Of a stretch of 64,000 bases of DNA, positions 3,492 to 44,754 are shown in pieces. The stretch comes from Gemmatimonadales bacterium (lineage in GTDB: Bacteria > Gemmatimonadota > Gemmatimonadetes > Gemmatimonadales > GWC2-71-9). Under the pieces are notes generated by a model, which worked only from the letters and a program-made list of their open reading frames with translations, did no database searches and was not told the DNA's origin. The stretch is from contig DASWCE010000230.1 in NCBI GenBank assembly GCA_036390255.1, positions 5,701-69,700 on the forward strand, read 5' to 3'. The number at the start of each line of letters is the position of its first letter. Positions within the stretch are counted from its first letter, which is position 1. The translations under genes were made by a program, and so were the position numbers.

Positions 3492-3510
3492 AGATAGAGA
3501 GCTCGACGCG

Positions 3511-6340: not shown

Positions 6341-6342
6341 TC

Positions 6343-9668: not shown

Positions 9669-10035
9669 CCTCCGCGGCATCATCGTGACGCACGCCGCGG
9701 TCGCGCAGGCACTGGTGGCGGCGGTGGGTGCGATCACCGGCGTTCAAGATGCGCTCACCGGCGTATCGAACGAGGGGTGCGGCACGGCGGAGTTGGGCGA
9801 GCGCCTGCGCACAGCCATCGGCGAAGGACCCGCCGTGCTCTTCGTCGATCTGCCCGGAGGCTCCTGCTTTACCAGCTCGGTCCGCTATGCGAGGCAGCAT
9901 GCCGAAATCGCCGTCGTCACCGGTGTGAATCTCGCCATGCTGGTCGATTTCGTCTTTCACCGGGACATCTCACCCGCGGAGGCCGCCCGTCGTGCCGTCG
10001 ACGCCGGCGCGAAGGCGATTCGCGTGAGCGCATGA
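9661..10035 (+). CDS. PTS mannose-family EIIA component
   Basis: N-terminal phosphorylatable His context GIIVTHAA, then VDLPGGSCF and VTGVNLAMLV, as in EIIA-Man. Confidence 0.85.
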   Translation: MSDLRGIIVTHAAVAQALVAAVGAITGVQDALTGVSNEGCGTAELGERLRTAIGEGPAVLFVDLPGGSCFTSSVRYARQHAEIAVVTGVNLAMLVDFVFHRDISPAEAARRAVDAGAKAIRVSA

Positions 10036-10505
10036 GTCTCGCGCTGTATCGCATCGATGACCGGCTGATCCACGGCCAGGTGGTCGTGGGGTGGGGCCAG
10101 CCGCTCCACGTCTCATTCATCGTGCTCGTTGATGACGAGGTGAGCAGCAGCGATTGGGAGCAGGATCTCTACCGCATGGGCGTACCGCCCCAGATCGAAG
10201 TGATCTTCGCGTCGGTGGATCAGGCGGCGCAGCTGTTTTCGACTTGGGAAGCGGATGAGCGCGTCGGGATTCTGCTCGTGGGCGATATCGATACGGCGGT
10301 CGCGCTTGCCGCTCGGGTGCCGCAGGTGCGCCGGTTCAATGTGGGCGGCGTCCATCACCGCACCGGTCGGAAGGAACGGCTGCGTTTCGTGTATCTGACC
10401 GACGATGAAGCGTTTAAGCTGCGCGAGTTGGCGGCGCGCGGCGTCGACGTCACCGCGCAGGACGTGCCGACGGCGCGCGCGGTGCCGATCGGAGAGTTCA
10501 CATGA
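10032..10505 (+). CDS. PTS mannose/sorbose-family EIIB component
   Basis: YRIDDRLIHGQVVVGW (active-site His motif); ATGA overlap with EIIA. The ORF-track start 9777 is an upstream extension. Confidence 0.88.
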   Translation: MSLALYRIDDRLIHGQVVVGWGQPLHVSFIVLVDDEVSSSDWEQDLYRMGVPPQIEVIFASVDQAAQLFSTWEADERVGILLVGDIDTAVALAARVPQVRRFNVGGVHHRTGRKERLRFVYLTDDEAFKLRELAARGVDVTAQDVPTARAVPIGEFT

Positions 10506-11194
10506 TCCTCCCCATCGAGGTCCTGATCGCGCTCCTCCTGTGGGGCACGCTGGTGGGCGTCGATCTGGTCAGCCTGCCCCAGATGATGATCGCCCGGCCG
10601 CTCGTGGCGGGCACGGTCGCGGGCGCCATCCTCGGCGACATCCCGACGGGCCTCAAGCTCGGTGTCGTCTTCGAGCTGCTGCAGTACGACATCCTGCCCG
10701 TCGGCGCGGTGCGTTACCCCGAATACGGGCCTGCAACCGTCGCCGCGGTCGCGACGGCGCACTCGGCGCCCGGGGGTGGCGTGCTCGGCCTGGGTCTCGG
10801 GGCTCTCGTGGGACTCGTGACCGGCCTGCTCGGGGGTGTCACGATCAACCTGCTGCGCCGCGTGAACTCGCGGATCGTGCATGCCGCCGCAGCGCAGCTG
10901 GAATCGGGAGACCCGCGCGCGCTGGTGCGCATACACGTGGGTGGGTTGCTGCGTGACGCCCTGCGGGCGGCACTGGTGACGATGGTCGGCCTCGTGCTCG
11001 CCTGGCTGGCGCGGCCACTCCTTGCCGGTGCGCTCACCGTGCGCGGCGCGCTGCTCCTGGCCGTCGCCGCCGTCGGAACCGCGCTCGCCGCGGGTGCCTC
11101 GGGCACGCTGCGGCTCGTGGGACGCGGGCCGAATCTCGCATGGTTCGCCGCCGGTTTGGGCGGCGGCATTCTGGCGACGATATGGGTACGGTAA
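10502..11194 (+). CDS. PTS mannose-family EIIC membrane component
   Basis: Polytopic hydrophobic protein positioned between EIIB and EIID; FELLQYDILPVGA segment; ATGA overlap. Confidence 0.8.
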   Translation: MILPIEVLIALLLWGTLVGVDLVSLPQMMIARPLVAGTVAGAILGDIPTGLKLGVVFELLQYDILPVGAVRYPEYGPATVAAVATAHSAPGGGVLGLGLGALVGLVTGLLGGVTINLLRRVNSRIVHAAAAQLESGDPRALVRIHVGGLLRDALRAALVTMVGLVLAWLARPLLAGALTVRGALLLAVAAVGTALAAGASGTLRLVGRGPNLAWFAAGLGGGILATIWVR

Positions 11195-11919
11195 ACGGCG
11201 CGCTCGCGCGTGCGTTGCTGCGGCTGTTCGCCGTGCAGGGCTCGTACAACTACGAGCGCATGCTCGGCGTGGGCGTTGGCGTCGCCGAAGAGCCGCTGCT
11301 GCGCGATCTGGGCAATGGCCAGTACGGGCCAGCCGTCGCGCGCGGCGCGCATTTCTTCAATGCGCATCCCTATCTCACCGGCCTCGCGGTTGGCGCGGCT
11401 GCCCGCGCGGAACACGACGGCGCTTCGCCCGATCAGATCGAGCGGCTGCGGGAAGCGCTGTGTGGCCCGCTCGGCTCGCTCGGCGATCGTTTGGTCTGGG
11501 CTGGATGGCTGCCGTTGCTGTCGGGACTGACGATTGCGGCGATCGCGCTTGGCGCCGGATGGTTTGCGGTGGCGGGATTCCTGATCGTCTACAACATCGG
11601 TCACGTGGCGCTTCGCTGGTGGGCGCTCTCCGCTGGATGGACCTACGGTGCGCGCGTGAGCGTCGCGCTGCACAGCCCGATGCTGCAGAAAGCGGGGGCG
11701 CTGCTCGGTCCGGCCATGGCGTTCGCCGTAGGCTTTGCACTGCCGCTGGCGGCTCGCTTCCTTGCGGTTCCGTTCCCACGCTGGGGCCAGCTGGCCGCGG
11801 TGGTGACGGCGGGGCTGGTGTTCCTGGCGTTGCGTTGGCGCAGTGACCGGTTGAATGGTCTACGTGTGGCGCTGGGGCTGTCGGCCGTGGCGCTCGTCGT
11901 CGGGTTGATATGGCAGTAG
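11182..11919 (+). CDS. PTS mannose-family EIID membrane component
   Basis: LFAVQGSYNYERMLGVGVG (ManZ-type motif) followed by C-terminal transmembrane segments; ATG 11182 chosen. Confidence 0.82.
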   Translation: MGTVNGALARALLRLFAVQGSYNYERMLGVGVGVAEEPLLRDLGNGQYGPAVARGAHFFNAHPYLTGLAVGAAARAEHDGASPDQIERLREALCGPLGSLGDRLVWAGWLPLLSGLTIAAIALGAGWFAVAGFLIVYNIGHVALRWWALSAGWTYGARVSVALHSPMLQKAGALLGPAMAFAVGFALPLAARFLAVPFPRWGQLAAVVTAGLVFLALRWRSDRLNGLRVALGLSAVALVVGLIWQ

Positions 11920-12212
11920 TCGAGCGCGACGCCCAGATCGTGAACCCGCTCGGGATGCACGTCCGGCCGGGGGCGGAGTTCGTCAAAGTGGCGAACAAGT
12001 TCAAGTCGACCGTCGAAGTGCACAAAGACGGCGCCGTCGTGAACGGCAAGAGCATCCTCGGCATGATGACGCTGGCTGCGGAATGCGGCTCGTCCATTCG
12101 AATCAAGACCGATGGCGCGGACGCGGAGGAAGCGATGGCCGCGTTGCTCGAGCTGGTGGCTGCCGGATTTCATGAGATGCACCTGAAGGCTCCCGCCAAG
12201 GACGACGAATGA
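11910..12212 (+). CDS. ptsH: Phosphocarrier protein HPr
   Basis: His site NPLGMHVRPG and HprK target serine NGKSILGMMTL are both present. Confidence 0.92.
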   Translation: MAVVERDAQIVNPLGMHVRPGAEFVKVANKFKSTVEVHKDGAVVNGKSILGMMTLAAECGSSIRIKTDGADAEEAMAALLELVAAGFHEMHLKAPAKDDE

Positions 12213-14020
12213 GCGCGTCCGACCGTCTCTTGAAGGGCATTGGGGTCTCGCCGGGCATCGCCATGGGGCCCACGGTGACGGTGCGGTGGGCCCTCCCCGA
12301 GGTCCCCCATCGCGTCGTCGCCCGCACGCAGGTGGAGAAGGAGATACGACGCCTGCGTGCGGCGATCAAAGACGTCAAGCGACAGCTCGCCGAGTTCCGC
12401 GCCCGGGCGGTGGATCGCGCCGGCGTCGACGAGGCGCGCATCTTCGACGCGCAGGCCCTGATGCTCGATGACAAGGACTTCATCGGCGGGATCGAGGAGC
12501 TGATCCGGGAAAACCACCTCACGGCAGAGAAGGCGTTCGAGTTCAAGACACTCGAGGTCCGTGATCTGTGGACGGCGGCGGGCAATCCGCTGCTCAAGGA
12601 GCGGCTCGCCGACGTAACCGGTGTGGCCATCCGCGCCATCCAGCATCTGATGCACAAGGGAAGCGGCGCCGATGTGTGGGAAAGTCTCTCCGAGCCGTCG
12701 ATTCTCGTGGCTCGTGAGCTGTCGCCCGGGCTGACGGTCCAGCTCGACCGCGACCAGATCGTCGGGTTGATCAGCGAAGAGGGAACGCGCACGTCCCACG
12801 CGGCGATTCTCGCGCATTCCATCGGCATTCCGGCGATCTTCGGCCTGCGCGGTGCCGTGGCGCGCATCAAATCCGGGACCAAGGTCATTCTGGATGGCAC
12901 GCGCGGCACGGTGCTGGTGGACCCCACCCCCGAGGAGGTGGCGGAGGCCGAGCGCGCCGATAGCCGCAGGCGGGAGCTCGCCGGCCGGCTGGAAGAGGCC
13001 GTCGCTCAGCCATCGGTGACCCTGGATGGCGTGCGTTTCACCTTGCGCGGAAATGTCGATCTGCCGGACGAGCTGGAGGCCGCGAAGGCGCATGGCGCGG
13101 AAGGCGTGGGCCTCTTGCGGACCGAGTTTCTCATCACTGGGCACAGTGAGCTGCCGGATGAAGAAACGCAGACCAACTACTTCCGTCACGTCGGCGAGAC
13201 GTTTGCCGGATATCCGGTCGTCGTGCGGACCTACGACCTCGGCGGCGACAAGTTCCCCGCACCCTTCCGCACGCCGGTTGAGCCCAATCCGTTCCTCGGC
13301 TGGCGGGCGATTCGGGTCTGTCTCGACGAGCCGGAGATGTTTCGCACACAGATCCGTGCCGTGTTACGCGCCGCGGTGACGGCGAATCTGCACCTCATGA
13401 TTCCGCTCGTGACTCGCCTCGACGAGGTCGAGCGCACCCGCGAATTGATGCACGAGGAAGCGGCCCGCCTGGAGAAAGACGGCGTGGCCGCGGCCAAGAG
13501 CGTGCCGCTGGGCGTCATGGTCGAGACACCCGCCGCGGCCGTGCTGGCGGATCGGCTGGTCGAAATCAGCGACTTCCTCAGCGTGGGGACCAACGATCTC
13601 ACGCAGTACACGCTGGTCGTCGATCGGGCGAACGCGCGCCTGGCGGATCGTTTCACGCCGCACGATCCGAGCGTCCTGCGCCTGCTCAAACTCGTTGCTG
13701 AAGCGGCGCGCGCCGCGAACAAGCCCGCCAGCGTGTGTGGCGAGATGGCCTCAGAGCCGCTCTCGGCATTCCTCTTGCTGGGGTTGGGGTACGACACGCT
13801 GTCCGTCGCGCCGCCGGCGCTGCCGCTCATTAAATGGCTCATCCGGCAGGTGACCACGGCGCAGGCGCGAGCGGCTGCCGAGGCGGCGCTCGCGGCTCGC
13901 TCGGCAGAGCTCGCGCTCGACATCTTGCGATTCGCACTCGCGGAAGCTGTCGATCCGACACTGCTCGATCCGGACGCGCGGTTGCCCGCCGGACGGCGCT
14001 CCGGTAGCTTGAAACTCTAG
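12209..14020 (+). CDS. ptsI: Phosphoenolpyruvate-protein phosphotransferase (PTS Enzyme I)
   Basis: GTRTSHAAILAHSIGIPA active-site His region, GLLRTEFL, and SVGTNDLTQY in the PEP-utilising C-terminal domain. Confidence 0.95.
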   Translation: MSASDRLLKGIGVSPGIAMGPTVTVRWALPEVPHRVVARTQVEKEIRRLRAAIKDVKRQLAEFRARAVDRAGVDEARIFDAQALMLDDKDFIGGIEELIRENHLTAEKAFEFKTLEVRDLWTAAGNPLLKERLADVTGVAIRAIQHLMHKGSGADVWESLSEPSILVARELSPGLTVQLDRDQIVGLISEEGTRTSHAAILAHSIGIPAIFGLRGAVARIKSGTKVILDGTRGTVLVDPTPEEVAEAERADSRRRELAGRLEEAVAQPSVTLDGVRFTLRGNVDLPDELEAAKAHGAEGVGLLRTEFLITGHSELPDEETQTNYFRHVGETFAGYPVVVRTYDLGGDKFPAPFRTPVEPNPFLGWRAIRVCLDEPEMFRTQIRAVLRAAVTANLHLMIPLVTRLDEVERTRELMHEEAARLEKDGVAAAKSVPLGVMVETPAAAVLADRLVEISDFLSVGTNDLTQYTLVVDRANARLADRFTPHDPSVLRLLKLVAEAARAANKPASVCGEMASEPLSAFLLLGLGYDTLSVAPPALPLIKWLIRQVTTAQARAAAEAALAARSAELALDILRFALAEAVDPTLLDPDARLPAGRRSGSLKL

Positions 14021-28832: not shown

Positions 28833-31448
<2,616 letters not shown>

Positions 31449-31452
31449 AGGC

Positions 31453-31902
31453 ATGGCCGCCGCGCTTGAGCAGGCGCGGCGTGCCGCTGCCCAAGACGAA
31501 GTGCCGATCGGTGCCGTTGTCATGCGCGGCGACGAGATCGTCGCCGAGGCGCACAACGAAACCGTCGCGCGCAAAAATCCCACCTATCATGCGGAGTTTC
31601 TGGCCATCGTGCGGGCGCTCGAGGCGTTAGAGACGGATCGGCTCACCGACTGTACGCTCTACGTCACGATCGAGCCGTGCGCGCAGTGCGCCGGCGCTAT
31701 CGTGCTGGCGAAGGTCGCGAAAGTCGTGTTTGGCGCGTACGATGAGAAAGCGGGGATGTGCGGGTCGGTGGGAGACATCGTGCGGCATCCCCGATTGAAC
31801 CACCGCGTGGATGTCCAAAGTGGGGTCGAAGCTGAAGCCTGCACGGAGTTGATTAGAGATTTTTTTGCAGCAAAACGCCCAGCGCCTCAGCCGCCTCGCT
31901 GA
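31453..31902 (+). CDS. tadA: tRNA-specific adenosine deaminase
   Basis: EVPIGAVV, HAEFLAI and VTIEPCAQCAGA zinc-deaminase motifs. Confidence 0.9.
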   Translation: MAAALEQARRAAAQDEVPIGAVVMRGDEIVAEAHNETVARKNPTYHAEFLAIVRALEALETDRLTDCTLYVTIEPCAQCAGAIVLAKVAKVVFGAYDEKAGMCGSVGDIVRHPRLNHRVDVQSGVEAEACTELIRDFFAAKRPAPQPPR

Positions 31903-32980
31903 TTTGTGCATCCGTGAGGTATGGCGCCGGACCCAGCCGTAACAGCTCTCCCCGATAGTCGGTCCAGATGTTCTTCTTGCGTAACGCTTTTTGAATCTTC
32001 GCAGCCCGCGGCGCCGGGATCGCTAGGAATCCACCAATTGCATCGTTCCTCGAGCCACCAGACAGAATCTCGATTTGATGCTGGTTGAGCTCGCGCAGCT
32101 TCGGCGGCGTGAGCTTCTGGTCTTCGAAGAACTTGAAGACTGACGCCGCTCGATAGTGGCTCGTAAAGTCGTAGGTCGCACCCGCAAATCGCGCCGGCCC
32201 TGGACCATACGCGACACGACCGCCTGCCCGTGAGCGGCTGAGATCTGTGAATTCGCTGAACCAGCCGGTTACGACCGGCCGCAGATCGGAGTCCTGGGGA
32301 AACCGCAGAAACGCATTGCCGGGGCCGAGCTGGCAGTACTTGTATCCACCTCCGACGACGTACGCACGCTGCAGTCCTTCCGCTATAAGAGAAAACGGCA
32401 CGACGTTGAGCGCGTGATACGCGTCCACCACCAGTTCCGCGCCCACGCGCTCGCAGGCCTCCTGGACTACGCGGAGATTTGGGATGATGTGGGCATTCGT
32501 GTAAAGCACCGCGGACACGAGAACGGCTGCGGTGCGATCGTCCACCGAAATCGCCAGCCGCTCGGCCAGCGTCGCCGAAGGCATTGCCGGCACCTTGATG
32601 ACCTCGATGCCTTCTTCCGCCAAGCGATCAAGCTGGCGACGGATAGTGTGAAACTCAGCGTCTGTCGTCACCAGCTGGGGGCGCTTGCGGAGGGGCAGCG
32701 CCGACAGGAACCGCACGACGAGCTCATGGGTGTTTTGCGCCAGCGCGATGCGCTCGGGCGTATCGTCCAGGAGCCGTGCGAACCCGCGCCGCACCTCATC
32801 GGCCTTTGCAAACGCGAGATCCCACACGTCGTCGACATGCTCGGCAGTATCGAGCCACGCCTGCGCCTGCGCTTCGAACCCTACGTCCGGCCACGCCTGA
32901 TGTGAGTGACCTGTGAGAAGGATGCGCTCTGTGACGCGAAACCGGCGATAATGCTTGGCGAGCTCTTCCGGTGTGATCAC
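31853..32980 (-). CDS. kynU: Kynureninase (divergent, PLP fold type I)
   Basis: DAYHALNVVPFSL and the PLP-lysine context VVGGGYKYCQLGPGNAF (compare YKYLNGGPG in known kynureninases), TGWFSE, and C-terminal DYRGELLRLGPAPYL. GTGA overlap with the kynA stop. Confidence 0.78.
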   Translation of the reverse strand: MITPEELAKHYRRFRVTERILLTGHSHQAWPDVGFEAQAQAWLDTAEHVDDVWDLAFAKADEVRRGFARLLDDTPERIALAQNTHELVVRFLSALPLRKRPQLVTTDAEFHTIRRQLDRLAEEGIEVIKVPAMPSATLAERLAISVDDRTAAVLVSAVLYTNAHIIPNLRVVQEACERVGAELVVDAYHALNVVPFSLIAEGLQRAYVVGGGYKYCQLGPGNAFLRFPQDSDLRPVVTGWFSEFTDLSRSRAGGRVAYGPGPARFAGATYDFTSHYRAASVFKFFEDQKLTPPKLRELNQHQIEILSGGSRNDAIGGFLAIPAPRAAKIQKALRKKNIWTDYRGELLRLGPAPYLTDAQISEAAEALGVLLQKNL

Positions 32981-33759
32981 AGCTCGGAGCGAATCGCCCA
33001 CAGATCGGGAAAGGCTGGTTGATTCAACGTCGTGAGCAGATACTCGGCCCCCGCCGAACCCCCCGTGCCCGGCTTCGTCCCGATCGTCCGCTGCACCATC
33101 TTCACATGCCGATACCGCCACTCCATGAACCCCTCATCCAAATCCACCAGCCGCTCGGCGATCTGGGCAACCGTCGGGTTCTTCTTGTAGACCTCGACGA
33201 GAATCCGCTGTATTTCTGGTGACGGCTCGTACATCTGGCTGAAATCCCGCTGGAGCAACGCCTTCGGTACGGGATACTTGTTGGCCGCGAGATACTGAAG
33301 GAAAGCATCCCACAACGTCGGCTGGCTGAATCGACGCTCGACGCGTTTCCGGTTCTCGCTGCCCTCCGGATAGCGCTCGAACGAAGGCCGTCCCTTCTTG
33401 CCCAGCATGAATTCGATCTCGCGAAACTGATGCGACTGAAAGCCGCTCCCCGACTCCAACCGGTCCCGGAACGCCAAAAAGTTGAGCGGCGTGATCGTCT
33501 CGAGTACGTCAATCTGTGCAACTAATGTCTTGAGGATGGTGAGGATTCGTTTCAGAGTCGCTGCTGCGAGCGGGGTGTCGTTTGCGCGCAGGAGCTTCTG
33601 CAAATAGTCGAGCTCGTGCAGCACTTCTTTGAACCACAGCTCGTAGACCTGGTGGATGATCACAAAGAGTGTCTCGTCGTGCTCCAGCTCGCCTGGTCGG
33701 GGCTGCTGGAGCGACAAAAGCTCGTCGAGCTTCAAGTAACTCGAGTACGTGACGGTCAT
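32977..33759 (-). CDS. kynA: Tryptophan 2,3-dioxygenase
   Basis: [16 protein letters not shown] and [19 protein letters not shown] (haem-pocket His region); ATGA overlap with the upstream stop. Confidence 0.92.
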
Positions 33760-36005
33760 GGGCGTGGCTTGTAGCGGTTGAGCGTGGCGTACGGATCGGG
33801 CCAGGGCAGCGGATAGCCTTGCTCGTACGCCGCGTGCCGAGTCCAGTAAGGATCCCACAGATGCGCGCGTGCCAGCACGCACAGATCGGCGCGGCCGGCC
33901 GCGAGAATCGTGTTCACATCCTGGTACGACGAGATGTTGCCGACCGCCATCGTCGCAATGCCGACTTCGTGGCGAATGCGGTCGGCGAACGGGGTCTGAA
34001 ATTGCCGGCCGTACTGCGGCTTTGCATCGGCGACGGTTTGGCCCGCCGAGACGTCCGTGATGTCGCAGTCGTGCGCCTTCAGCATGCGGGCGACTTCGAC
34101 CGAATCGGCGGGCTGCATTCCACCCGGCACCCAGTCGACCGCGGAGATGCGCACCGACATCGGCTTATGGGAGGGCCAGGCGCCGCGCGCCGCGTCGAAC
34201 ACCTCGAGCGGAAACCGCATCCGATTTTCGAGCGAGCCGCCATACTCGTCCGTCCGCTTGTTCGTGAGTGGCGAGATGAAGCTCGCCAGCAAATAGCCGT
34301 GCGCGAAATGGAGCTCGAGCAGATCGAACCCCGCCTCGTGCGACATCTGCGCCGCCCGCACGAAGTGTTCCTTCACCTCGTCCATGTCGGCGCGCGTCAT
34401 CTCTTTGGGCACCTGACTGTAGGGGAAGTAGGGCAGGGGCGACGCCGAGATGATGGGCCAGTTTCCGTCGGGCAACGGCTCGTCCATCCCCTCCCACATG
34501 CGCTGGGTGGACGCCTTGCGTCCGGCGTGACCGAGCTGCATCGCGATCTTCGCATTGCTGTTCACGTGCACAAAGTCCACGATCCGCTTCCAGGCTGCGA
34601 CATGCTCGGGCTTGTACATGCCGGTGCAGCCCGGCGAAATCCGACCCTCTCGGGATACGTCCGTCATCTCGCTGAACACGAGCCCCGCACCGCCGATCGC
34701 TCGGCTTCCGAGATGCACCAGATGCCACTGGTTCGGCGTCCCGTCCTCTGCGACGTATTGGCACATCGGCGAAACCACGACGCGGTTACCGAGGAGCAGG
34801 TCGCGGAGCTTGAAGGGCGTGAACATGGGCGGGGGGGCGTGGGGCGTGGGGCGTGGTACCTGGGATTGCTTCTCTGCTTGATCGGCGTACCACTGGTCGA
34901 TCTCCTCGACGAATTTCGGATCGCGCACCTTGAGATTGTCGTGGGTGATGCGGAGGCTACGCGTGAGCAGATTGAACGCGAACTGCGGCGGCTCGAGGCT
35001 CATGTAGCGCTCGGTGTCTTCGAACCACTGCAGGCTCACTTGCGCGGCGCGCTGTAGACTCTCGACGGCCGGCCGGCGCTCGGTCTCGTATTCAGAGAGT
35101 GCGGTGCCCACGTCGGGGTGGCGTTGCAGCGCGCCGGCGAGCGCGATCGCATCTTCGATCGCGAGCTTGGTCCCCGATCCCACCGAGAAATGGGCCGTGT
35201 GCGCGGCGTCGCCGAGCAGGACGACATTGCCATGCGACCAGACGGCGTTCTTCACGGTGACGAACCGACGCCACAGCGAGCGGTTCTGCTGCAGGCGATG
35301 ACCCTCGAGCTCTTCTTTGAACAGGGCCTCGCAGAACGCGACGGTCTCGTCTTCAGTGGCGGTGTCGAGCCCCGTGTTGCGCCAAACCGCGTCGGTCGTC
35401 TCGACAATGAATGTCGAATGTCCCTGCTCGTACTGATATGCGTGCACACGCCACAGGCCGTGCTTGTCACGCTTGAAGTAGAACGTGAAGGCGGGGAAGG
35501 GGCGGGTGGTACCGAGCCAGACGAACCGGTTGGGCCGCTCGTCAAACGACGGCTGAAAATGCTCACGGAACCGTCCCCGCACGGTGCTGTTGAACCCGTC
35601 GGCACCGATGACGAGATCCGCGTCGGCATAGACCGCCGGATCCGTGACTTCGGTCCCGACTTCGATGCACACACCGAGCTCCTCACACCGCTCGCCTAAC
35701 ACTCCCAGCAGCGCGCGCCGCGATAGCCCGCTGAATCCGTGGCCGCTCGACGTGATCACGTGGCCGCGGTAATGGATGTCAATGTTGTCCCAGTGCGCGA
35801 AGTGACTCGCCATCGCATCGTAAGTCTCGGGATCGGCAGCGGCCAGATTGTTCTGCGTCGCGTCGGAGAAGACGACGCCGAACCCATACGTGTCGTCCAG
35901 ACGATTGCGCTCGAGAATCGTAATCTCGTGCTTCGGATAGGCCTTCTTCATCAGAATGCCGAAGTACAGCGCCGCCGGCCCGCCGCCGATCGTGACGATT
36001 CTCAT
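33756..36005 (-). CDS. Fusion of FAD aromatic-ring monooxygenase and OYE-type NAD(P)H:flavin oxidoreductase (2-aminobenzoyl-CoA monooxygenase/reductase or salicylyl-CoA 5-hydroxylase type)
   Basis: N-terminal half: [23 protein letters not shown] and [19 protein letters not shown]-terminal half: [15 protein letters not shown] and [14 protein letters not shown] (Old Yellow Enzyme family). 749 aa. Confidence 0.8.
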
Positions 36006-37138
36006 TTGATGAGCTGGCCCGCGATGATGAGGTGCTGGATTTCCGTCGTCCCCTCGTAGATGCGCAAGGCGCGCACGGAGCGGTAGAGCCGATCGACGGG
36101 ATGGTCGGCCAGCACCCCGCGACCGCCCAGGATCTGGACCGCGTCATCGACGATCCGCTGGGCGGCTTCGGTCGCGAACGCCTTCGCCATCGCGGCCTCG
36201 AGCGTGACGCGCGGCGCGCCGCGATCCTTTTCCCACGCCGCCCGATAGACGAGCAGCCGCGCCGCCGTCAGGTCGGTGGCCATCCGGGCCAGTTTCTCCT
36301 GAATCAGCTGGAAATCGGCGATCGGCTTGCCGAACTGTCGCCGCGATTTCGCATGGGCGAGTGCTTCGGCCAGCGCGCGCGTCGCCATGCCGCACGCCGC
36401 CGCGCCGACGGTCGCGCGCACCCGGTCCAGCGTGGCCAGACCCAGCTTGAACCCTTCGCCCGGAGGATCGAGCCGGCACGCGCTCGGCACCGACGCCTGC
36501 TGAAACGCAATCTCCCCCAGCGGGTGCGGCGCAGACAGGAGCAGCGGCCGCACGAATCGTAGCCCCGGGGTATCGGCCGTGACGACGAAACACCCGATGC
36601 CCTTGTCCTTCTTGGCGCGGTCGGTGGTCGCGAAGACCGTATAAAAGTCGGCGATGCCGGCATTGGAGATGAAGGTCTTCGTGCCTGAGAGCAAATAGCC
36701 GTCGCCGTTTGGTTCCGCGGTCGCGCCGAGCGAGGCGACATCGGAGCCGGCATCGGGCTCGGTCATCGCGAACGACGCCATCGCGTGACCCTGAATCGCC
36801 GGGTCGAGCCAGCGCTGGCGCATGGCATCGTTGGCGGAGAGCAGCATCGGGACGACGCCAAGCGCCTGCAACGCGAACACGGCGTCGGCGAGCGGTGACG
36901 CCGCGGCGAGCGCCTCGCGCACAATACAACAGGCGCGCCAATCCTGATCGCGAATCGGCTTGAGCCAGCCGGCGGCGCCCAGTTTCCCGAGGAGCTCGCG
37001 GGCCTGCTGGCGCGCAGTCGCATCATCCTTCGGCTCGGCGAGCGGCGCGAGCTGGCGCATGGCGAACTCGCTCACACGGGCGGCCAGGGTCAGGTGCCGC
37101 TCGTCGAGGAATGCGCGGACCGGCGCCGTGTCGACCAT
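36002..37138 (-). CDS. Acyl-CoA dehydrogenase
   Basis: [19 protein letters not shown] and [10 protein letters not shown] motifs; ATGA overlap downstream. Confidence 0.9.
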
Positions 37139-37938
37139 CAGATGAACTTGGGATCGCGCTTGGCGCGGAACGCATCGTGCGCTTCGCGGAAGTTCGGTCC
37201 CTGCATGAGCTGCGCCTGCACCTCCGCCTCATACGCCAGCGCGGCGTCCAGGTCGAGTGCGGCTTCCGCTTCGAGCGCCTGCTTCGTCACGCCCAGTGCG
37301 GCCGACGGTCCGCGCGCCAGCCGCTCGGCGACACCGCGCGCCTCCGGCAGGACCTGCGCCTGCGGCACGACTCGGTTGTAGAGCCCGATCTCGTACGCCC
37401 GTTTCGCGTCCATGAAGTCGCCACTGAGCAGCAGCTCCGCCGCGTGGCCGTAGCCGATGAGGCGCGGCAGGAGCCAGGCCGCACCCATGTCGGCGCCCGA
37501 GAGTCCGACTCTGGTAAAGAGAAAAGCAATCTTCGCCGACTCGGCGGCCACGCGAATGTCGCAGGCAGCGGCGATGACCGCTCCCGCGCCGGCCACGGTG
37601 CCGTTGAGCGCGCCGACGATCGGCCGGCGGCAGCGCCGCATGGCGAGGATGAGGTCGCAGGTGATGCGGGTGAAGTGCTTCAACGCCTCGAGGTCACGCC
37701 CGAGCAACGCCCCGATGATGTCCTCGACGTCGCCACCCGAACAGAATGCGCGACCGGCCCCAGTAATGATGATGGCGCGGACGCCGGGCTCCGTGTCGAG
37801 GCCCTGGAAAGCGTCGCGCAGCTCCTTGTACACGGCGAACGTGAGTGCATTGAGCCGCTCAGGGCGGTTGAGCGTGATCGTGGCGACCTGAGTCTTCTGG
37901 TCGAGCTCGTAGAGGAACGACTCCGCGAAGACGCTCAT
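37138..37938 (-). CDS. Enoyl-CoA hydratase/isomerase (crotonase) family protein
   Basis: ITLNRPERLNAL and GAGRAFCSGGD motifs; ATG 37938 overlaps the RidA stop (ATGA). Confidence 0.88.
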   Translation of the reverse strand: MSVFAESFLYELDQKTQVATITLNRPERLNALTFAVYKELRDAFQGLDTEPGVRAIIITGAGRAFCSGGDVEDIIGALLGRDLEALKHFTRITCDLILAMRRCRRPIVGALNGTVAGAGAVIAAACDIRVAAESAKIAFLFTRVGLSGADMGAAWLLPRLIGYGHAAELLLSGDFMDAKRAYEIGLYNRVVPQAQVLPEARGVAERLARGPSAALGVTKQALEAEAALDLDAALAYEAEVQAQLMQGPNFREAHDAFRAKRDPKFI

Positions 37939-38315
37939 AGTATGGCGACCGCTTCGATCTCGACGAGCGCCTTGGAGTCCATCAGCGATTTCACTTCGAC
38001 GACGGCCATCGCCGGATAATGACGGCCCATATGTTTGCGGTGAACCTCGCCCAGCGGGCTCAAGTTGGCGAGATACGCCGCGCGGTCCGTGATGTAGCAG
38101 ATCATGCGCCCGACGTTTTCCGGCGTGCCGCCGGCCGACCGCACGACCTCCATCACACGCCCCAGCGCGCCGTCCCATTGCGCGACGAAATCACCGACGG
38201 GAACGATCTGGCCGGCGACGAACAAAATGCGCCCGCCCTTCTCCGCCAGCATCCCGTGATTCCAGCCACTCGGCCGCGCGCCGAATATTTTGGGGTTGAT
38301 GATCTCGTACACCAT
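37935..38315 (-). CDS. RidA/YjgF-family (enamine/imine deaminase family) protein
   Basis: 126 aa; ILFVAGQI...MICYITD...PAMAVVEVKSL...VEIEAVA, typical of the family. Confidence 0.82.
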   Translation of the reverse strand: MVYEIINPKIFGARPSGWNHGMLAEKGGRILFVAGQIVPVGDFVAQWDGALGRVMEVVRSAGGTPENVGRMICYITDRAAYLANLSPLGEVHRKHMGRHYPAMAVVEVKSLMDSKALVEIEAVAIL

Positions 38316-38323
38316 TGCTCTCC

Positions 38324-39088
38324 CTATCCTGCGATCGTAACGGCCGTGCCGTTGGGTCGCTGGCCATGCGGGTCGGCGAGCGCCAGGACGGCTTCGGCGA
38401 CTTCTTCCGGCGTGATCAGCCGCCGCTGTGACGCCGACGCCAGCAACGCGGACAGTGCGGCAGCGGGATCCTTGCCCGTCTTCGTGACGACACGCTCGAC
38501 TGATTCCTGAGTCATCTCGGTATCTACAAAGCCGGGACAGACCGCATTGCACGTCACGCCGGTGCCTTCGACCTCGGCGGCGACACTTTGTGTCAGGCCG
38601 ATCACGGCATGCTTGGCCGCGGCGTACGCGGCGATATAGCGCCCACCTGTCAGTCCCGCGACCGACGCGACATTGACGATCGAGCCTCGTCCGCGCTCGA
38701 GCATGCCGCCGAGGAACGCGCGCGTACACAGAAACGTACCTGTCGCGTTCACTGCCAGCACGCGGTTCCAGTCCTCGAGCGAGGTCTTCGCCACCGGTGC
38801 GCTATGCGCAACCCCGGCGTTGTTGACCAGGATGTCGACGCTTCCGGCACTTCGCGTGGCAGCCTTGACGAGATCCGCGACACTGGCCACGTCGGTGACG
38901 TCGCATGGCACCGCCCACGCCTTGCCGCCACGGCCGCGGATTTCAGTTGCAACCTGCTCGATGCGATCGGTGCGGCGCGCCGCGACGACGACCGCGGCGC
39001 CCTCGGCGGCCAGCGCGTTCGCGACGGCGGCGCCGATGCCCTGGCCGCCCCCGGTGACCAACGCGACCGCGCCGTCAAATCTCCGCAA
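38324..39088 (-). CDS. Short-chain dehydrogenase/reductase (3-hydroxyacyl-CoA/3-oxoacyl reductase-like)
   Basis: AGGAGG 6 nt before TTG 39088; ALVTGGGQGIGAA, NNAG and YAAAKHA (YxxxK) motifs. Confidence 0.88.
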   Translation of the reverse strand: MRRFDGAVALVTGGGQGIGAAVANALAAEGAAVVVAARRTDRIEQVATEIRGRGGKAWAVPCDVTDVASVADLVKAATRSAGSVDILVNNAGVAHSAPVAKTSLEDWNRVLAVNATGTFLCTRAFLGGMLERGRGSIVNVASVAGLTGGRYIAAYAAAKHAVIGLTQSVAAEVEGTGVTCNAVCPGFVDTEMTQESVERVVTKTGKDPAAALSALLASASQRRLITPEEVAEAVLALADPHGQRPNGTAVTIAG

Positions 39089-39830
39089 GCACGGCCTCCT
39101 CGAGGATCGCACCCAACGCGTCAACGAGACGCGAGCCCTCGCCGGCGGTGGCGGCGGCGGGGTCGCCAAAGTAAGCGCGTGGACCACCGGCTTCCTCGAA
39201 CGTTCGTTTGCCCGCACGGATCGCGTCGGAGAGCGAGGGCGGGTTGGGCGGCAAAGTGCCCCGGACCGCCTCGCGGACGGCCGCGGGACGCTCGCTGAGG
39301 ACGATCGAGCTCTCGAACTGGCCCGCGTGACACGCGCCGCTTTTGAATTCCTCTCCGAGCCTCAAGGCCCACGGCTTCTGCGTCAGGTCGGGGAAGACGA
39401 CCGGCAGCAGCCGATCGGCGCGAGCGAGCTTCACGGCTTCGTTCAGCGCCGTGAGATGCTCCGGGTCGAGATGGGCATTGGCGATCGCCAGCAGTCGAAA
39501 CCCTTGCTGCGACAGGCTGCGCGCCAGATCCACGATGACGGCGGTGACTGTGATTCCGGAAATGGACAACGTGCCGTGAAACGCGGCGCCGAAGCTGGCC
39601 GCGGTATAGGCGAGCGCGGGCAGAATCACGCTGTCATTCCCCCGTGCCGCGAGCCGCATGGCTCCCGCTCGGGCCATGGCACTGGCGATCAGGACGTCGG
39701 TCTCGAGCGGGAGATGCGGCCCGTGCGCTTCGATGGCTCCGATGGGCAGTATCGCTAGGGTGCGCGCGCGGCCCAAGTCCCGGACTTCCTCCCAGGTGAG
39801 TTGCGCCAGCTCATGAACCGGCATCATCAT
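39075..39830 (-). CDS. Creatininase (creatinine amidohydrolase) family metal-dependent hydrolase
   Basis: LTWEEV...LPIGAIEAHGPHLPLETD plus the downstream IANAHLDP and CHAGQFESS segments; starts with ATGATGATG. Confidence 0.8.
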   Translation of the reverse strand: MMMPVHELAQLTWEEVRDLGRARTLAILPIGAIEAHGPHLPLETDVLIASAMARAGAMRLAARGNDSVILPALAYTAASFGAAFHGTLSISGITVTAVIVDLARSLSQQGFRLLAIANAHLDPEHLTALNEAVKLARADRLLPVVFPDLTQKPWALRLGEEFKSGACHAGQFESSIVLSERPAAVREAVRGTLPPNPPSLSDAIRAGKRTFEEAGGPRAYFGDPAAATAGEGSRLVDALGAILEEAVLAEI

Positions 39831-39838
39831 CCTTTCGC

Positions 39839-41362
39839 ATGCTACGCGAGATCCCTGAGCGTCTGAACATCGCCGATTGGCTGTTGGACGCGCGCGTCCG
39901 GGAGGGGAGGGGAGACCGGCCGGCGCTGCTGACAGACCAGGGCACACTCACCTACCGTGAGGTGCAGACGCTCGCGAACCGATTCGGTCATCTGCTCCAG
40001 AGCGCCGGCGTAGAGCCGGAACAACGCGTGATCATCGCGCTCCCCGATGGGCCGGAGTTCGTCGCCGCGCTGTTCGGCACACTCAAAGTTGGCGCGGTGG
40101 TGGTGATGGTCAACCCACAGCTGGCCGTAGATGCGATCGAGTACTTCTACACATACACGAGAGCCACGGTCGCACTCGTGCACCGCCACACCGCACCGGT
40201 ATTTCAGGCGGCGCGCAGTGCCGCCGGAAGCTATCTCAAGCAGATCATTGTGGTGGGGGAGCCGGGAACGGCGCGTGCCATCGACGGCGCGTCACCCGAC
40301 CAGGACACGTTCCCGAGTCACCGCGACGACGCCGCGATCTGGTTGTTCTCCGGCGGCACGACCGGCAAGCCGAAGGCGGTGGTACAAAGTCACCGCTCTT
40401 TCGCCAATACGACCCTGTGTTACGGTCAAGGCGTGCTCGGTCTTACGGAGCGTGACATCACGCTTGCGGTACCGAAGCTGTTCTTTGGGTACGCGACCGG
40501 CTCGAACCTGTTCTTTCCGTTTTCGGTCGGTGCGGCGGTCGCCCTGTTTCCCGAGAAGAGCACCGCGGAAACGCTGTTCGCCAAGATCCGCAGATTCGGC
40601 CCGACGGTCCTCGTGAACGTGCCGACGATGGTGAACCAGATGGTCGCTCATCCCGACGCCAAGCAGCAGGATCTGTCGTCGCTCCGGCTCGCGACCTCCG
40701 CCGGCGAAGCGCTGCCCGTCGAGCTGTATGAGCGCTGGAAGAAGACGTTCGGGGTGGAGCTACTCGACGGACTCGGCACGGCGGAGATGTGGCACATCTT
40801 CATTTCGAACCAGCCCGGCGCGGTCAAGCCTGGCACGATCGGGACCGTCGTACCGGGCTTCGACGTCAGAGTGCGCGACGACCTGGGGCACGACTTGCCG
40901 GATGGTGAAGTCGGCATGCTGTGGGTGCGCGGCGGATCGCGGGCGATCGGCTACTGGCAGCAGATGGAGAAGACGCAGGCTGCATTCCGCGGCGAGTGGT
41001 ACGTCTCGGGCGATCTCATCCGCCGCGATGCCGAGGGCTACTTCACCTACTGCGGTCGCGCCGACGACTTGTTGAAGGTCGGGGGCAAATGGCTCGCGCC
41101 ACAGGAGGTGGAAGGTTGTTTGCTCCAGCACCCGCTCGTCAAAGAAGTCGCCGTCGTGGGTGTGGAAGATGCGAGTGGGTTGACGAAGCCGCATGCGTTT
41201 GTCGTTGCGACGGAAGAACGGCCAGGCCTTGCCGAGGAGCTTCAGGCATTCGCCCGCGAGCGACTGGAGCCGTACAAGGCGCCGCGCACGGTCAGATTCC
41301 TCGATGCTCTCCCCCGAACCCACTTGGGCAAGGTGGACCGTGGCAAGCTCCGGCTTCAATGA
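39839..41362 (+). CDS. Benzoate-CoA-ligase-family aryl-CoA ligase (candidate 2-aminobenzoate-CoA ligase)
   Basis: AMP-binding core WLFSGGTTGKPKAV, YVSGDLIRRDAEGYFTYCGRADDLLKVGGKWL and C-terminal PRTHLGKVDR. Confidence 0.88.
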   Translation: MLREIPERLNIADWLLDARVREGRGDRPALLTDQGTLTYREVQTLANRFGHLLQSAGVEPEQRVIIALPDGPEFVAALFGTLKVGAVVVMVNPQLAVDAIEYFYTYTRATVALVHRHTAPVFQAARSAAGSYLKQIIVVGEPGTARAIDGASPDQDTFPSHRDDAAIWLFSGGTTGKPKAVVQSHRSFANTTLCYGQGVLGLTERDITLAVPKLFFGYATGSNLFFPFSVGAAVALFPEKSTAETLFAKIRRFGPTVLVNVPTMVNQMVAHPDAKQQDLSSLRLATSAGEALPVELYERWKKTFGVELLDGLGTAEMWHIFISNQPGAVKPGTIGTVVPGFDVRVRDDLGHDLPDGEVGMLWVRGGSRAIGYWQQMEKTQAAFRGEWYVSGDLIRRDAEGYFTYCGRADDLLKVGGKWLAPQEVEGCLLQHPLVKEVAVVGVEDASGLTKPHAFVVATEERPGLAEELQAFARERLEPYKAPRTVRFLDALPRTHLGKVDRGKLRLQ

Positions 41363-41392
41363 GGCGTTTGGACCGATTACTTTGGTGTGCCT

Positions 41393-41479
41393 GGATAGGT
41401 GGCCGAGCGGCTGAAGGCACACGCCTGGAGAGCGTGTAAACGGGTAACCGTTTCGTGGGTTCGAATCCCACCCTATCCG
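41393..41479 (+). tRNA. tRNA-Ser (anticodon GGA)
   Basis: Hand-folded cloverleaf: acceptor GGATAGG/CCTATCC, anticodon stem CACGC/GCGTG with loop CTGGAGA, long variable arm, T-loop GGTTCGAATCC, discriminator G. No encoded CCA. Confidence 0.93.
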
Positions 41480-41482
41480 CTT

Positions 41483-41569
41483 GGACAGGTGGGTGAGTGG
41501 TTGAAACCGCCGGTCTCGAAAACCGGTATGCCCGCAAGGGCATCGAGGGTTCGAATCCCTCCCTGTCCG
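41483..41569 (+). tRNA. tRNA-Ser (anticodon CGA)
   Basis: Acceptor GGACAGG/CCTGTCC, anticodon stem CCGGT/ACCGG with loop CTCGAAA, long variable arm ATGCCC-GCA-GGGCAT, T-loop GGTTCGAATCC. Lies 3 nt after the previous tRNA. Confidence 0.93.
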
Positions 41570-41574
41570 TCCCC

Positions 41575-42333
41575 ATGGGAATCTGGAACAGCACGCTGGT
41601 GTACGTCGGCGCGCGCACGCTGCTCGCGGGAGCGATGATCGCGCTGCTCCTCCGGCGTCAGGTCGGTCCATGGTACGCCGGCGGGCAGGTGGTTTCCGAT
41701 CTCTCCTGTGCGGCGTTTCTGCTGGCGTACGTCAATCCGGACATTCGCGACGACGTCGGCGTTCTCGTCATACCACTCCTGCTGTACGTGCTGTACTGGG
41801 AAGCGACGCGATTTCTCGACAACCGGCGCGCGGCCGCCGCGCGCGACGATGAGGAAAGCACGCTCGATACGGTCCTGCGCGTGTACGGTTCGATGTGGGC
41901 ATTCGGGTTCGTGATGCCTGCCGTGCTGGCCGGTGGTTTTCTGATGTTCGACCTGCTGGCGCCCGGACAATGGCCGTTCCCGAATCCGCGGCCCGGCCTG
42001 GTCTGTGACCCGTCGCAGCTCGAGCCGGGAGCAGCCCTGACGATGCGCATGAGCGTCCCCCATGGCGCGGAGCTGAGCGTGTTCACGCCGACCGGCCGCT
42101 CGCTTGTCGTCGTCCCGTTCGTGCAATTGGGGACGCAGCCCCGCGGTTCCGGGTTCGACTATACTGCTCGGCTGACGCTCGCGACGGATACGGTGACGGG
42201 ACTTGCCGCGCCGGGCTCGCGTCCGGAACGCGTCTTCGCCGATTCCGGCGTCTACATGCTGAGAGTCAGCTCGGAAGCGGAGTTCAATGCCTCGCAGGTT
42301 TGCCGCGTACGCTACAATTCGGGGAAATCATGA
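41575..42333 (+). CDS. Hypothetical membrane protein (N-terminal TM bundle plus beta-rich C-terminal domain)
   Basis: ORF with about 4 hydrophobic segments and no motif I recognise. ATG 41575 is only 5 nt after the tRNA 3' end; alternative starts at 41599 and 41635. Confidence 0.5.
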   Translation: MGIWNSTLVYVGARTLLAGAMIALLLRRQVGPWYAGGQVVSDLSCAAFLLAYVNPDIRDDVGVLVIPLLLYVLYWEATRFLDNRRAAAARDDEESTLDTVLRVYGSMWAFGFVMPAVLAGGFLMFDLLAPGQWPFPNPRPGLVCDPSQLEPGAALTMRMSVPHGAELSVFTPTGRSLVVVPFVQLGTQPRGSGFDYTARLTLATDTVTGLAAPGSRPERVFADSGVYMLRVSSEAEFNASQVCRVRYNSGKS

Positions 42334-43130: not shown

Positions 43131-43351
43131 CACGCACCGAATTCCGGCGCATGGCGCTGCGCTTGGTACAGTTGACTCCGGAGCAACAGGAGTTGTTCGT
43201 GCGCGCCGAGCCGAACACGTTCCAACCGGTGCCGGGAGGGTGGGGACGAAAAGGCAGCACACACGTCCTGCTCAAGACGGCCAAGAAAGCAGCGGTGCGT
43301 GAGGCGTTGAAGATCGCTTACACGAACCGTGCGCCCGGGAGATCCACATGA
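43127..43351 (+). CDS. Small hypothetical protein (74 aa)
   Basis: ORF bracketed by ATGA overlaps on both sides; no family confidently recognised. Confidence 0.45.
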   Translation: MTRTEFRRMALRLVQLTPEQQELFVRAEPNTFQPVPGGWGRKGSTHVLLKTAKKAAVREALKIAYTNRAPGRST

Positions 43352-44754
43352 AGCGCGTTAGTTTGTTCGCGTTGCTCATGACACAGCCGCTGCAGCTCTG
43401 CGCGCAGACCCCGCGGGCGCTTTCCCCAAACGATCAGCGCGCGCACGACATTTTTGAGCAGCTCATCAACATCAACACCACGGCGTCGAGCGGGAGTACG
43501 ACGATCGCCGCCAATGCGATGGCCAAGCGCCTGACCGAGGCCGGGTTTCCCGCGGCCGATGTGCAGGTCATGGGTCTCGAAGGCTCGAAGAACTACAATC
43601 TCGTCGCACGATTTCGCGGTACGGGTCGGGAGAAGGCGATTCTGTTGCTCGCGCATCTCGACGTCGTCGAGGCGAAGCGCGAGGACTGGTCGCTGGACCC
43701 GTTCACATTCGTCGAGCGTGATGGCTACTTCTACGGCCGGGGCACGCAGGATATCAAGGATGGCGGGGCCATCCTGGTCGCGACGTTCGTGCGACTCAAG
43801 CAGGAGGGGTATCGGCCAAACCGCGACTTGATCCTCGCCCTGACAACGGGCGAAGAAGGCGGGAGCGACTACAACGGTATCGAGTGGTTGCTGGCGCATC
43901 ACCGCGAGCTGATCGATGCGGCGTATGTGCTCAACATGGACGCCGGTGATCCAGTGATCATGAACGGGAAGCGCTTGATGCGACCGGTGCAGGCGAGCGA
44001 GAAGGTGTACGTGACGTTCAAGCTCGAGGTGCACAATCCCGGCGGGCATAGCTCGTTGCCGACGAAAGACAATGCGATCTACCGCCTGGCGTCCGCTCTT
44101 GGCCGGTTGAGCGCGTACGAATTTCCGGCGCAGCTCAACGAGATCACGCGCACCTTTTTCCAGCGGATGGCCGCGCTGCAGCAGGGACAGCTCGCCACCG
44201 ACATGGCCGGGGTGGCGGGGCCGACACCCGATGCAGCGGCGATCCGCCGGTTGTCGGACGTCAGCCCGCTGTATAACGCGCAACTGCGCACGACGTGCGT
44301 CGCGACCGAGCTCTCCGGCGGTCACGCCGAAAACGCGCTGCCGCAGACCGCGACCGCGACGGTGAATTGCCGGATGCTGCCCGGGACCCCGTCGGACGAG
44401 GTCCAGGGGATGCTGAGCAGGGTTGTCGCCGACACAGCCGTGAAGGTCAGCGTGGTGACCGCGGCAACTCCGAGTCCACCGTCGTCGCTCACCCCGGCGA
44501 TCATGGACCCAATCGAGCACGTGACCAAACGCCTCTGGAATATCCCGGTCGTTCCGGTGATGGAAACGGGCGCCACCGATGGGCTGTATCTGCGCAACGC
44601 CGGCATTCCCGTCTACGGCGTCTCGGGGGTCTTCATCGACGTCACCGATATTCGCGCCCACGGCCGCGACGAGCGCGTTGGAGTGCAGGATTTCTACGAC
44701 GGCGCCGAGTACATCTATCAACTCGTGAAGGCGGTCTCATCAGCACAACGGTGA
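43348..44754 (+). CDS. Exported M20-family metallopeptidase
   Basis: Signal peptide MKRVSLFALLMTQPLQLCAQ; metal/catalytic motifs LLAHLDVV, GRGTQDIKDG and TTGEEGGS. Confidence 0.85.
   Translation: MKRVSLFALLMTQPLQLCAQTPRALSPNDQRAHDIFEQLININTTASSGSTTIAANAMAKRLTEAGFPAADVQVMGLEGSKNYNLVARFRGTGREKAILLLAHLDVVEAKREDWSLDPFTFVERDGYFYGRGTQDIKDGGAILVATFVRLKQEGYRPNRDLILALTTGEEGGSDYNGIEWLLAHHRELIDAAYVLNMDAGDPVIMNGKRLMRPVQASEKVYVTFKLEVHNPGGHSSLPTKDNAIYRLASALGRLSAYEFPAQLNEITRTFFQRMAALQQGQLATDMAGVAGPTPDAAAIRRLSDVSPLYNAQLRTTCVATELSGGHAENALPQTATATVNCRMLPGTPSDEVQGMLSRVVADTAVKVSVVTAATPSPPSSLTPAIMDPIEHVTKRLWNIPVVPVMETGATDGLYLRNAGIPVYGVSGVFIDVTDIRAHGRDERVGVQDFYDGAEYIYQLVKAVSSAQR

Follow-up and report, generated by a model that had tools for sequence, protein, structure and literature searches.

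The subject of this analysis is a 64-kb stretch of DNA (64,000 nucleotides, hereafter the window) from contig DASWCE010000230.1 of a Gemmatimonadales bacterium, and in particular the gene at positions 39075-39830 on its minus strand, here designated crn. Crn is a protein of 251 amino acids from the creatininase family (PF02633) of binuclear-metal amidohydrolases. Its gene is the first of an operon that also carries kynA and a gene for a kynureninase-like enzyme (KynU), and it recurs, in at least five phyla, as a conserved member of a tryptophan/anthranilate-to-CoA catabolic cluster. The candidate function is that of an aryl-formamide deformylase feeding anthranilate to the aryl-CoA ligase encoded next to it, a reading that we favour tentatively and hold to be somewhat less than an even chance. 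A preliminary description of the window had placed a creatininase-family hydrolase at the head of an operon with kynA and kynU, and this is confirmed down to the coordinates of the gene; it had also proposed that the protein replaces a missing kynurenine formamidase, which is weighed below.

The operon comprises eight close-packed minus-strand genes running from crn down to position 31853, with junctions of -14 to +8 nt according to gene calling by codon usage. They encode, in this order, Crn, an SDR oxidoreductase, a RidA-like protein, an enoyl-CoA hydratase family protein (ECH), an acyl-CoA dehydrogenase (ACAD), a 2-aminobenzoyl-CoA monooxygenase/reductase-like protein (ACMR), KynA and the kynureninase-like enzyme, and the gene for the aryl-CoA ligase is divergent from crn. 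When each GTDB species was represented by one genome, a scan recovered 80 loci with Crn orthologues of 56-84% identity, distributed amongst Gemmatimonadota, Eisenbacteria, Acidobacteriota, Planctomycetota, Myxococcota and others. When nine window proteins were placed on these loci, a stereotyped layout was seen, with a divergent ligase gene followed by Crn-SDR-RidA-ECH-ACAD-(OYE)-ACMR-KynA-KynU. The ligase gene is directly upstream of and divergent from crn in 60 of 65 loci, the SDR gene is directly downstream in 63 of 72, and the kynureninase-like gene comes after kynA in nearly all related loci. Modules of the upper pathway also occur with Crn, as ligase|Crn-KynA-KynU in locus L023, KynU-ligase|Crn in L026 and L062, ligase-Crn-KynA in L159 and Crn-SDR-RidA-KynA-KynU in L022.

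The translation of crn starts with MMMPVHELAQ and includes LPIGAIEAHGPHLPLETD. It matches Pfam PF02633 with 173 bits (cutoff 31.3), residues 9-246 of 251 being aligned. An AlphaFold2 model computed from an alignment of 50 subfamily representatives has a pLDDT of 97.7, and its best 26 Foldseek matches in the PDB are all of the creatininase fold, with TM scores of 0.70-0.77 and E-values near 1e-15. These matches are creatininases and two uncharacterised structural-genomics entries, and they give no clue to the substrate; the nearest solved structure is creatinine amidohydrolase of Pseudomonas putida (1j2t/1q3k; TM about 0.74, 22-24% identity). A HMMER alignment places Crn residues E34, H36, D45, H120, D122 and H168 on the metal ligands (Glu34, His36, Asp45, His120 and Glu122) and the catalytic residue (His178) of the P. 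putida enzyme, and these positions are kept in 48-50 of the 50 subfamily representatives, position 122 being either D or E. By its sequence and predicted structure, Crn is an intact, active-looking metallo-amidohydrolase with a two-metal site.

Crn falls below the cutoff of every named NCBIfam equivalog that it matched. The best-scoring of these models is that of the mycofactocin peptidyl-dipeptidase MftE (TIGR03964), which shares the fold and the metal site; Crn is not assigned to it, having 114.6 bits (cutoff 172) and neighbours from the kynurenine pathway and the CoA branch rather than mycofactocin genes. An identification as creatinine amidohydrolase (TIGR04448) was likewise rejected, with 83.3 bits (cutoff 235) and a gene context unrelated to creatinine; the creatinine-contacting Tyr121 is Leu in Crn, and the position aligned with Trp174 has no Trp. 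The model of IolN, the 3-dehydro-scyllo-inosose hydrolase (NF041098), gives 26.2 bits (cutoff 245) and covers only the N-terminal part. The closest homologues of Crn are proteins from metagenome-assembled genomes (MAGs) of Gemmatimonadales, and the G+C content of the window is 66%, so that the window has a Gemmatimonadota-like appearance. Homologues are plentiful in soil metagenomes (5,933 proteins at E<=1e-10), and the subfamily forms 146 clusters (50% identity) at E<=1e-30. Literature searches turned up no paper that deals with this subfamily or describes a kynurenine formamidase of the creatininase family.

The preliminary description had also stated that the window holds no cyclase-type kynB, and all searches agree with it. 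The cyclase signature HxGTHxDxPxH and relaxed forms of it are absent from the six frames of the window, and a tblastn search of the window with a genuine KynB from the kynB-kynU-kynA operon of Limnohabitans (L093:2964-3590) gave no match, the best E-value being 4.4. Pfam scans of 20 less obvious open reading frames (ORFs) of the window returned neither PF04199 nor an alpha/beta hydrolase, and the remaining ORFs are housekeeping genes as judged by eye, unscored. Beyond the window, the motif is absent from all six frames of 82 fetched loci, and a tblastn search of a total of 93 such loci (1.4 Mb) with the Limnohabitans KynB gave no homologue apart from the positive controls. Bacterial kynB genes are often unlinked from kynA and kynU, so the absence of kynB from 64 kb is weak evidence for its absence from the genome.

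Three other genes were considered as possible deformylases and set aside. The M20 peptidase encoded at 43348-44754, the only other hydrolase near the operon, has a signal peptide, is syntenic only in the close relatives L001 and L007 and elsewhere lies outside the cluster. The gene found between KynA and KynU in Candidatus Eisenbacteria (L013:17013-19673, and likewise in L012, L025 and L031) encodes a Ser/Thr kinase of 886 amino acids that carries PD40 beta-propeller repeats. The third, a recurrent insert separating ACAD from ACMR, encodes an OYE-type reductase.

Between tryptophan and the product of ACMR, every step but deformylation has an enzyme, and every enzyme but Crn has a step. As an aryl-formamide deformylase, Crn would be a cytoplasmic enzyme dedicated, alongside the aryl-CoA ligase, to the route from tryptophan via anthranilate to 2-aminobenzoyl-CoA. 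It would remove the formyl group that is still attached to the aromatic amine after the KynA reaction, its substrate being either N-formylkynurenine, as in the classical KynB step, or N-formylanthranilate, after the side chain has been cut by the kynureninase-like enzyme; in both cases free anthranilate would be delivered to the ligase and subsequently to ACMR. What we infer here is the substrate, the formamidase chemistry and the place of the step.

A role in supplying anthranilate is favoured because Crn lies inside the tryptophan/anthranilate pathway and is not needed for the CoA branch of Proteobacteria. The 2-aminobenzoyl-CoA clusters of Phyllobacterium and Ralstonia contain ACMR (55% identity), SDR, ECH, ACAD, ligase and RidA and lack Crn, KynA and KynU, so that Crn is not a family of the core abm-type cluster. 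In the 72,556 plasmid and chromid records of PLSDB, no relative of Crn above 37% identity was found, though 551 records carry homologues of ACMR. These clusters and records suggest that the CoA branch runs without Crn and that Crn arrives with the genes for tryptophan opening. The published abm cluster of Azoarcus evansii, for aerobic 2-aminobenzoate degradation via 2-aminobenzoyl-CoA, reportedly has the same make-up as the proteobacterial clusters. ACMR, SDR, ECH, ACAD, RidA and an aryl-CoA ligase are common to the window and to these clusters, at 36-56% identity for L083 and L084; the proteobacterial clusters differ in lacking Crn, KynA and KynU, in having another ligase subtype (36%) and in carrying a MarR regulator and/or a thioesterase instead. 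The joining of kynA and kynU to 2-aminobenzoyl-CoA genes and to a ligase-Crn pair is a variation on known catabolic systems.

Two known deformylases offer comparisons for Crn. KynB (PF04199) resembles it in the proposed reaction, the hydrolysis of an aryl formamide between KynA and KynU, in having a binuclear metal centre and in being clustered with kynA and kynU, as in Limnohabitans. The two proteins differ in fold and family, Crn having neither the HxGTHxDxPxH motif nor any detectable similarity to KynB, and Crn tracks a CoA ligase. ArfB, the archaeal FAPy-monophosphate deformylase, is a formamide hydrolase of the creatininase family and acts on an N-formyl amine on an aromatic (pyrimidine) ring, which makes it a precedent within the family for the proposed chemistry. 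It belongs to archaeal riboflavin and F420 biosynthesis and has a nucleotide substrate, whereas Crn is found in a context of bacterial aromatic catabolism.

The proposal that Crn is the missing formamidase is supported in part, by the intact amidohydrolase site, by the conserved place of Crn in the cluster and by proteobacterial CoA branches that lack exactly Crn, KynA and KynU; a specific tracking of KynA and KynU by Crn is not supported. Several observations weigh against the deformylase reading, foremost that the constant partner of Crn is the ligase, not KynA or KynU. For the counts that follow, 80 metagenome loci were added and all Crn sequences were grouped by identity clustering, the window clade being defined by at least 55% identity. 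Within this clade, the ligase gene lies no more than 3.5 kb upstream of crn in 57 of the 60 loci with enough upstream sequence. Where both 9-kb flanks are present, the ligase was found in 30 of 32 loci and some CoA-branch gene in 29, and a Kyn gene (kynA or kynU) within 10 kb in 23, leaving nine with none. A smaller set of 29 full-flank loci likewise has nine without a Kyn gene within 10 kb, seven of which keep ligase or CoA-branch genes, and in the Myxococcota MAG loci L058 and L066 the ligase-Crn pair stands alone amid unrelated genes. The sister clades, whose Crn proteins are 39-49% identical to that of the window and whose ligases are 40-55% identical to the window ligase, have the ligase just upstream of Crn in 15 of 21 informative loci (in a 16th, L088, it is about 3.5 kb upstream) and Kyn genes in only two of the 21. 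A large clade of Blastocatellia/Acidobacteriota, recovered with a profile of distant representatives, contains Crn proteins 43-49% identical to that of the window; in its loci L085-L088 and L091 the ligase (47-49%) is just upstream on the same strand and no Kyn or CoA-branch gene is found in 20 kb, and L089 is alike. At the level of loci, Crn co-occurs with kynA or kynU in most of the window clade and in few members of the sister clades, and its link to the ligase is the stronger one.

Gene fusions count on the same side. At least nine distinct Crn-SDR fusion proteins of 512-533 amino acids were found (52-70% identity to P0126, the fusion used as query), some of them on contigs of up to 250 kb and one, in L177, inside a canonical cluster; one Crn-RidA fusion was also found. 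The Crn-SDR fusions are real and old, and they give a Rosetta-stone signal that points towards the CoA branch. Furthermore, an enediyne cluster of Streptomyces sp. Mg1 has the ligase subtype of the window (48%) divergent from KynA, together with the divergent kynureninase subtype of the window (55%), and has no Crn. Finally, the absence of kynB was established for the window and the fetched loci, and a canonical kynB may lie elsewhere in these genomes.

Part of this evidence may be reconciled with the deformylase reading. The isolated ligase-Crn pairs may be the result of pathway genes being dispersed around the genome. Kyn and/or CoA-branch genes accompany Crn in four further clades (L090, L159, L168 and L104), for example in the order KynA-KynU-RidA-ECH-ACAD-x-OYE-ligase-Crn in L090, and Crn is associated with Kyn genes in three clades that are separate from one another (4, 5 and 9) and with CoA-branch genes in five. 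Since sister clades are also found in such clusters, the tie of Crn to anthranilate metabolism looks ancestral. The coupling of Crn to the ligase also suggests that the deformylation step may adjoin the ligase rather than sit between KynA and KynU. The tracking of the ligase, and not of KynA and KynU, would be accounted for by an order-swapped pathway, in which the unusually divergent kynureninase-like enzyme accepts N-formylkynurenine, cutting it into N-formylanthranilate and alanine, and Crn acts next as a deformylase, on N-formylanthranilate or on the CoA thioester of it; in this specific form we judge the deformylase reading decidedly unlikely.

The alternatives to a deformylase place Crn elsewhere in the cluster, in a broader role or in none. 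It could act in the CoA branch after ACMR, together with SDR and RidA, by enaminone C-N hydrolysis of 2-amino-5-oxocyclohex-1-ene-1-carboxyl-CoA or by opening of the resulting cyclic beta-dicarbonyl ring. We consider this rather unlikely and yet a serious competitor of the deformylase reading, noting that Crn heads the CoA-branch gene block with the SDR gene next to it in most loci, that the fusions with SDR are recurrent and divergent, and that the seven full-flank loci mentioned above combine Crn with ligase or CoA-branch genes and no Kyn gene. In L040, moreover, Crn stays with SDR-RidA-ECH-ACAD while the ligase is with KynA-KynU about 5 kb away, and IolN, a creatininase-family hydrolase of ring C-C bonds, indicates that the fold is not limited to simple amides, although the IolN model gives Crn just 26 bits. 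Against a place in the CoA branch stand the two proteobacterial clusters that have the same CoA-branch families and no Crn, the absence of a close Crn from PLSDB despite its many ACMR records, and the loci L023, L026, L058, L062, L066, L085-L089 and L091, in which ligase-Crn or Kyn-ligase-Crn occurs without nearby CoA-branch genes. Fusions between other neighbours of the operon are also known from metagenomes, namely dozens of SDR-RidA proteins (about 390 amino acids), SDR-ECH proteins and fusions of SDR to a 'selenocysteine lyase', which is possibly a kynureninase-like enzyme; in view of these, fusion here seems to track adjacency and not necessarily consecutive chemistry. The preliminary description had named hydrolysis of an amide or lactam intermediate of the CoA branch as its own alternative, and this draws support from the Crn-SDR fusions and meets the same difficulty in the CoA-branch clusters without Crn.

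Crn and the ligase might instead form a general two-enzyme unit that releases an aromatic acid from a different amide or lactam conjugate, such as N-acyl-anthranilates or isatin- and oxindole-type lactams, ahead of its activation with CoA, or that processes the aryl-CoA product, the tryptophan cluster being one use of it. The pair is kept across several Crn clades and is isolated from Kyn and CoA-branch genes in Blastocatellia and in Myxococcota MAGs. The window ligase is 46-54% identical to the ligases paired with sister-clade Crn and 36% identical to those of the proteobacterial 2-aminobenzoyl-CoA clusters, and because of this closer relationship ligase and Crn seem to travel as a unit. We nevertheless regard a general unit as unlikely: no recurrent third gene hints at another substrate, the neighbours of the isolated pairs in Myxococcota and Blastocatellia being unrelated genes without a functional clue, the same ligase subtype occurs without Crn in the Streptomyces cluster, and the pair is found with Kyn and/or CoA-branch genes in five independent clades, which suggests an ancestral link to anthranilate. 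That Crn has no dedicated catalytic role, as a synteny passenger or as an enzyme of metabolite repair or proofreading, with deformylation left to an unlinked kynB, a promiscuous esterase or a spontaneous reaction, is very improbable in our judgement. N-formylkynurenine is labile and is attacked by many hydrolases, and such a view would fit with kynB being commonly unlinked. Against it, the position, orientation and tight coupling of Crn are kept in Gemmatimonadota, Eisenbacteria, Acidobacteriota, Planctomycetota and Myxococcota, where its identity is 55-84% and all catalytic residues are intact, and this conservation of place and of catalytic residues across phyla argues for selection on Crn within the pathway.

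The ligase that accompanies Crn is encoded in the window at 39839-41362 on the plus strand. It belongs to the benzoate-CoA ligase family (TIGR02262, 485 bits), and the structures in the PDB that it matches best are those of benzoate-CoA ligase (2v7b) and anthranilate-CoA ligase (4wv3). The start codons of the two divergent genes (39822-39841) are 8 bp apart, crn starting with three consecutive ATGs on the minus strand that end at 39830 and the ligase gene starting at 39839, so neither gene has room for a promoter in the spacer. A scan of 31300-41700 for the sigma-70 consensus gave no match, and together these observations suggest promoters inside the opposite gene, leaderless mRNAs or a promoter type other than sigma-70. 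In other clades the ligase and Crn genes frequently point the same way, and a gap or an overlap of 4 nt lies between them (L085 and L090, the overlap in L090 being 4 nt).

All remaining genes of the operon are on the minus strand, and four of them are of the beta-oxidation type. The SDR oxidoreductase (38324-39088) is similar to 3-hydroxyacyl/3-hydroxybutyrate dehydrogenases, and it is followed by the RidA/YjgF-like protein (37935-38315), of the enamine/imine deaminase family, by ECH (37138-37938; PRK08258, 349 bits, over the cutoff) and by ACAD (36002-37138). The gene at 33756-36005 encodes a fusion of an FAD-monooxygenase and an OYE-type reductase, 749 amino acids long, with 1160 bits to NCBIfam PRK08255 ('salicylyl-CoA 5-hydroxylase/oxidoreductase'), and its product is ACMR-like. 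Eight related loci have a separate OYE-type gene (Oxidored_FMN, about 490 codons) between ACAD and ACMR (for example L067:14180-15670), and in L090 the OYE gene (5653-7125) stands alone, the FAD-monooxygenase half not being seen; these inserts hint that the ACMR step may exist in split or alternative forms. The tryptophan 2,3-dioxygenase gene kynA (32977-33759) has 210 bits to PF03301 and 273 bits to TIGR03036, the latter under its cutoff of 391. The last gene (31853-32980) encodes a divergent kynureninase-like pyridoxal-phosphate enzyme, recognised by KYNU_C (28.7 bits) and by the P. fluorescens kynureninase 1qz9 (E=1e-7). This protein is far from the canonical enzyme, with no match to TIGR01814 and a tblastn E-value of 0.04 against canonical KynU. 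Further examples of its subfamily are L095:12765-13964 and L094:12789-13913, and the same subtype (55% identity) is found after KynA in Nonomuraea.

Several variant clusters and more distant relatives of Crn were also observed. The fusion proteins are represented by entries P0126, P0391-P0398, P0404, P0128, P0498 and P0500 and by loci L176 and L177. In L176 (8775-12405), a kynureninase-like gene lies directly 5' of the Crn::SDR fusion with a 4-nt overlap, a PIG-L/LmbE-family deacetylase gene lies between Crn::SDR and RidA, a thiolase gene adjoins the ligase gene, and neither KynA nor ACMR was seen within 10 kb. In the Blastocatellia loci L085-L088, L091 and L121, a DinB_2/MDMPI_N-like gene is located between ligase and Crn, sometimes with an Amidohydro_1/3 gene or a PIN toxin-antitoxin pair as well, and an N6_N4 DNA methylase gene is found downstream. 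A distant clade of Crn relatives (42-45% identity to the window protein) is followed by genes for a metallo-beta-lactamase-fold protein and a PGA_cap (CapA-like) protein, as in L096:9010-11469 and L098:10747-13236. Such relatives, of the P0143 type, have these neighbours and no ligase; they were set aside from the analysis and probably have a different function.

Elsewhere in the window, two tandem tRNA-Ser genes (anticodons GGA and CGA) at 41393-41572 come straight after the ligase gene, and since the mechanically called ORF starting at 41497 overlaps them, its N-terminus is spurious. A reading of the translations by eye, unscored, revealed in the stretches 3478-6822 and 8676-14020 an apparent riboflavin operon of the bacterial type (RibD, RibE, RibBA, RibH and NusB) and an apparent block of HPr kinase, a mannose-type phosphotransferase system, HPr and enzyme I. 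If the riboflavin operon is real, riboflavin would be made by the bacterial route and a deformylase of the ArfB type would be unneeded.

Whatever the substrate of Crn, a single operon links the opening of the tryptophan ring with the poorly understood aerobic 2-aminobenzoyl-CoA route, and the conserved pair of an aryl-CoA ligase and a creatininase-family hydrolase, which has no described function, lends itself to easy testing in vitro. Annotators have reason to drop the label 'creatinine amidohydrolase' for these proteins. If Crn is indeed an aryl-formamide deformylase, it would represent a third unrelated family of kynurenine/aryl formamidases, besides the alpha/beta hydrolases and the cyclase-like KynB, and it would close a pathway hole in soil phyla that are abundant and seldom cultured, namely Gemmatimonadota, Acidobacteriota, Eisenbacteria, Planctomycetota and Myxococcota.

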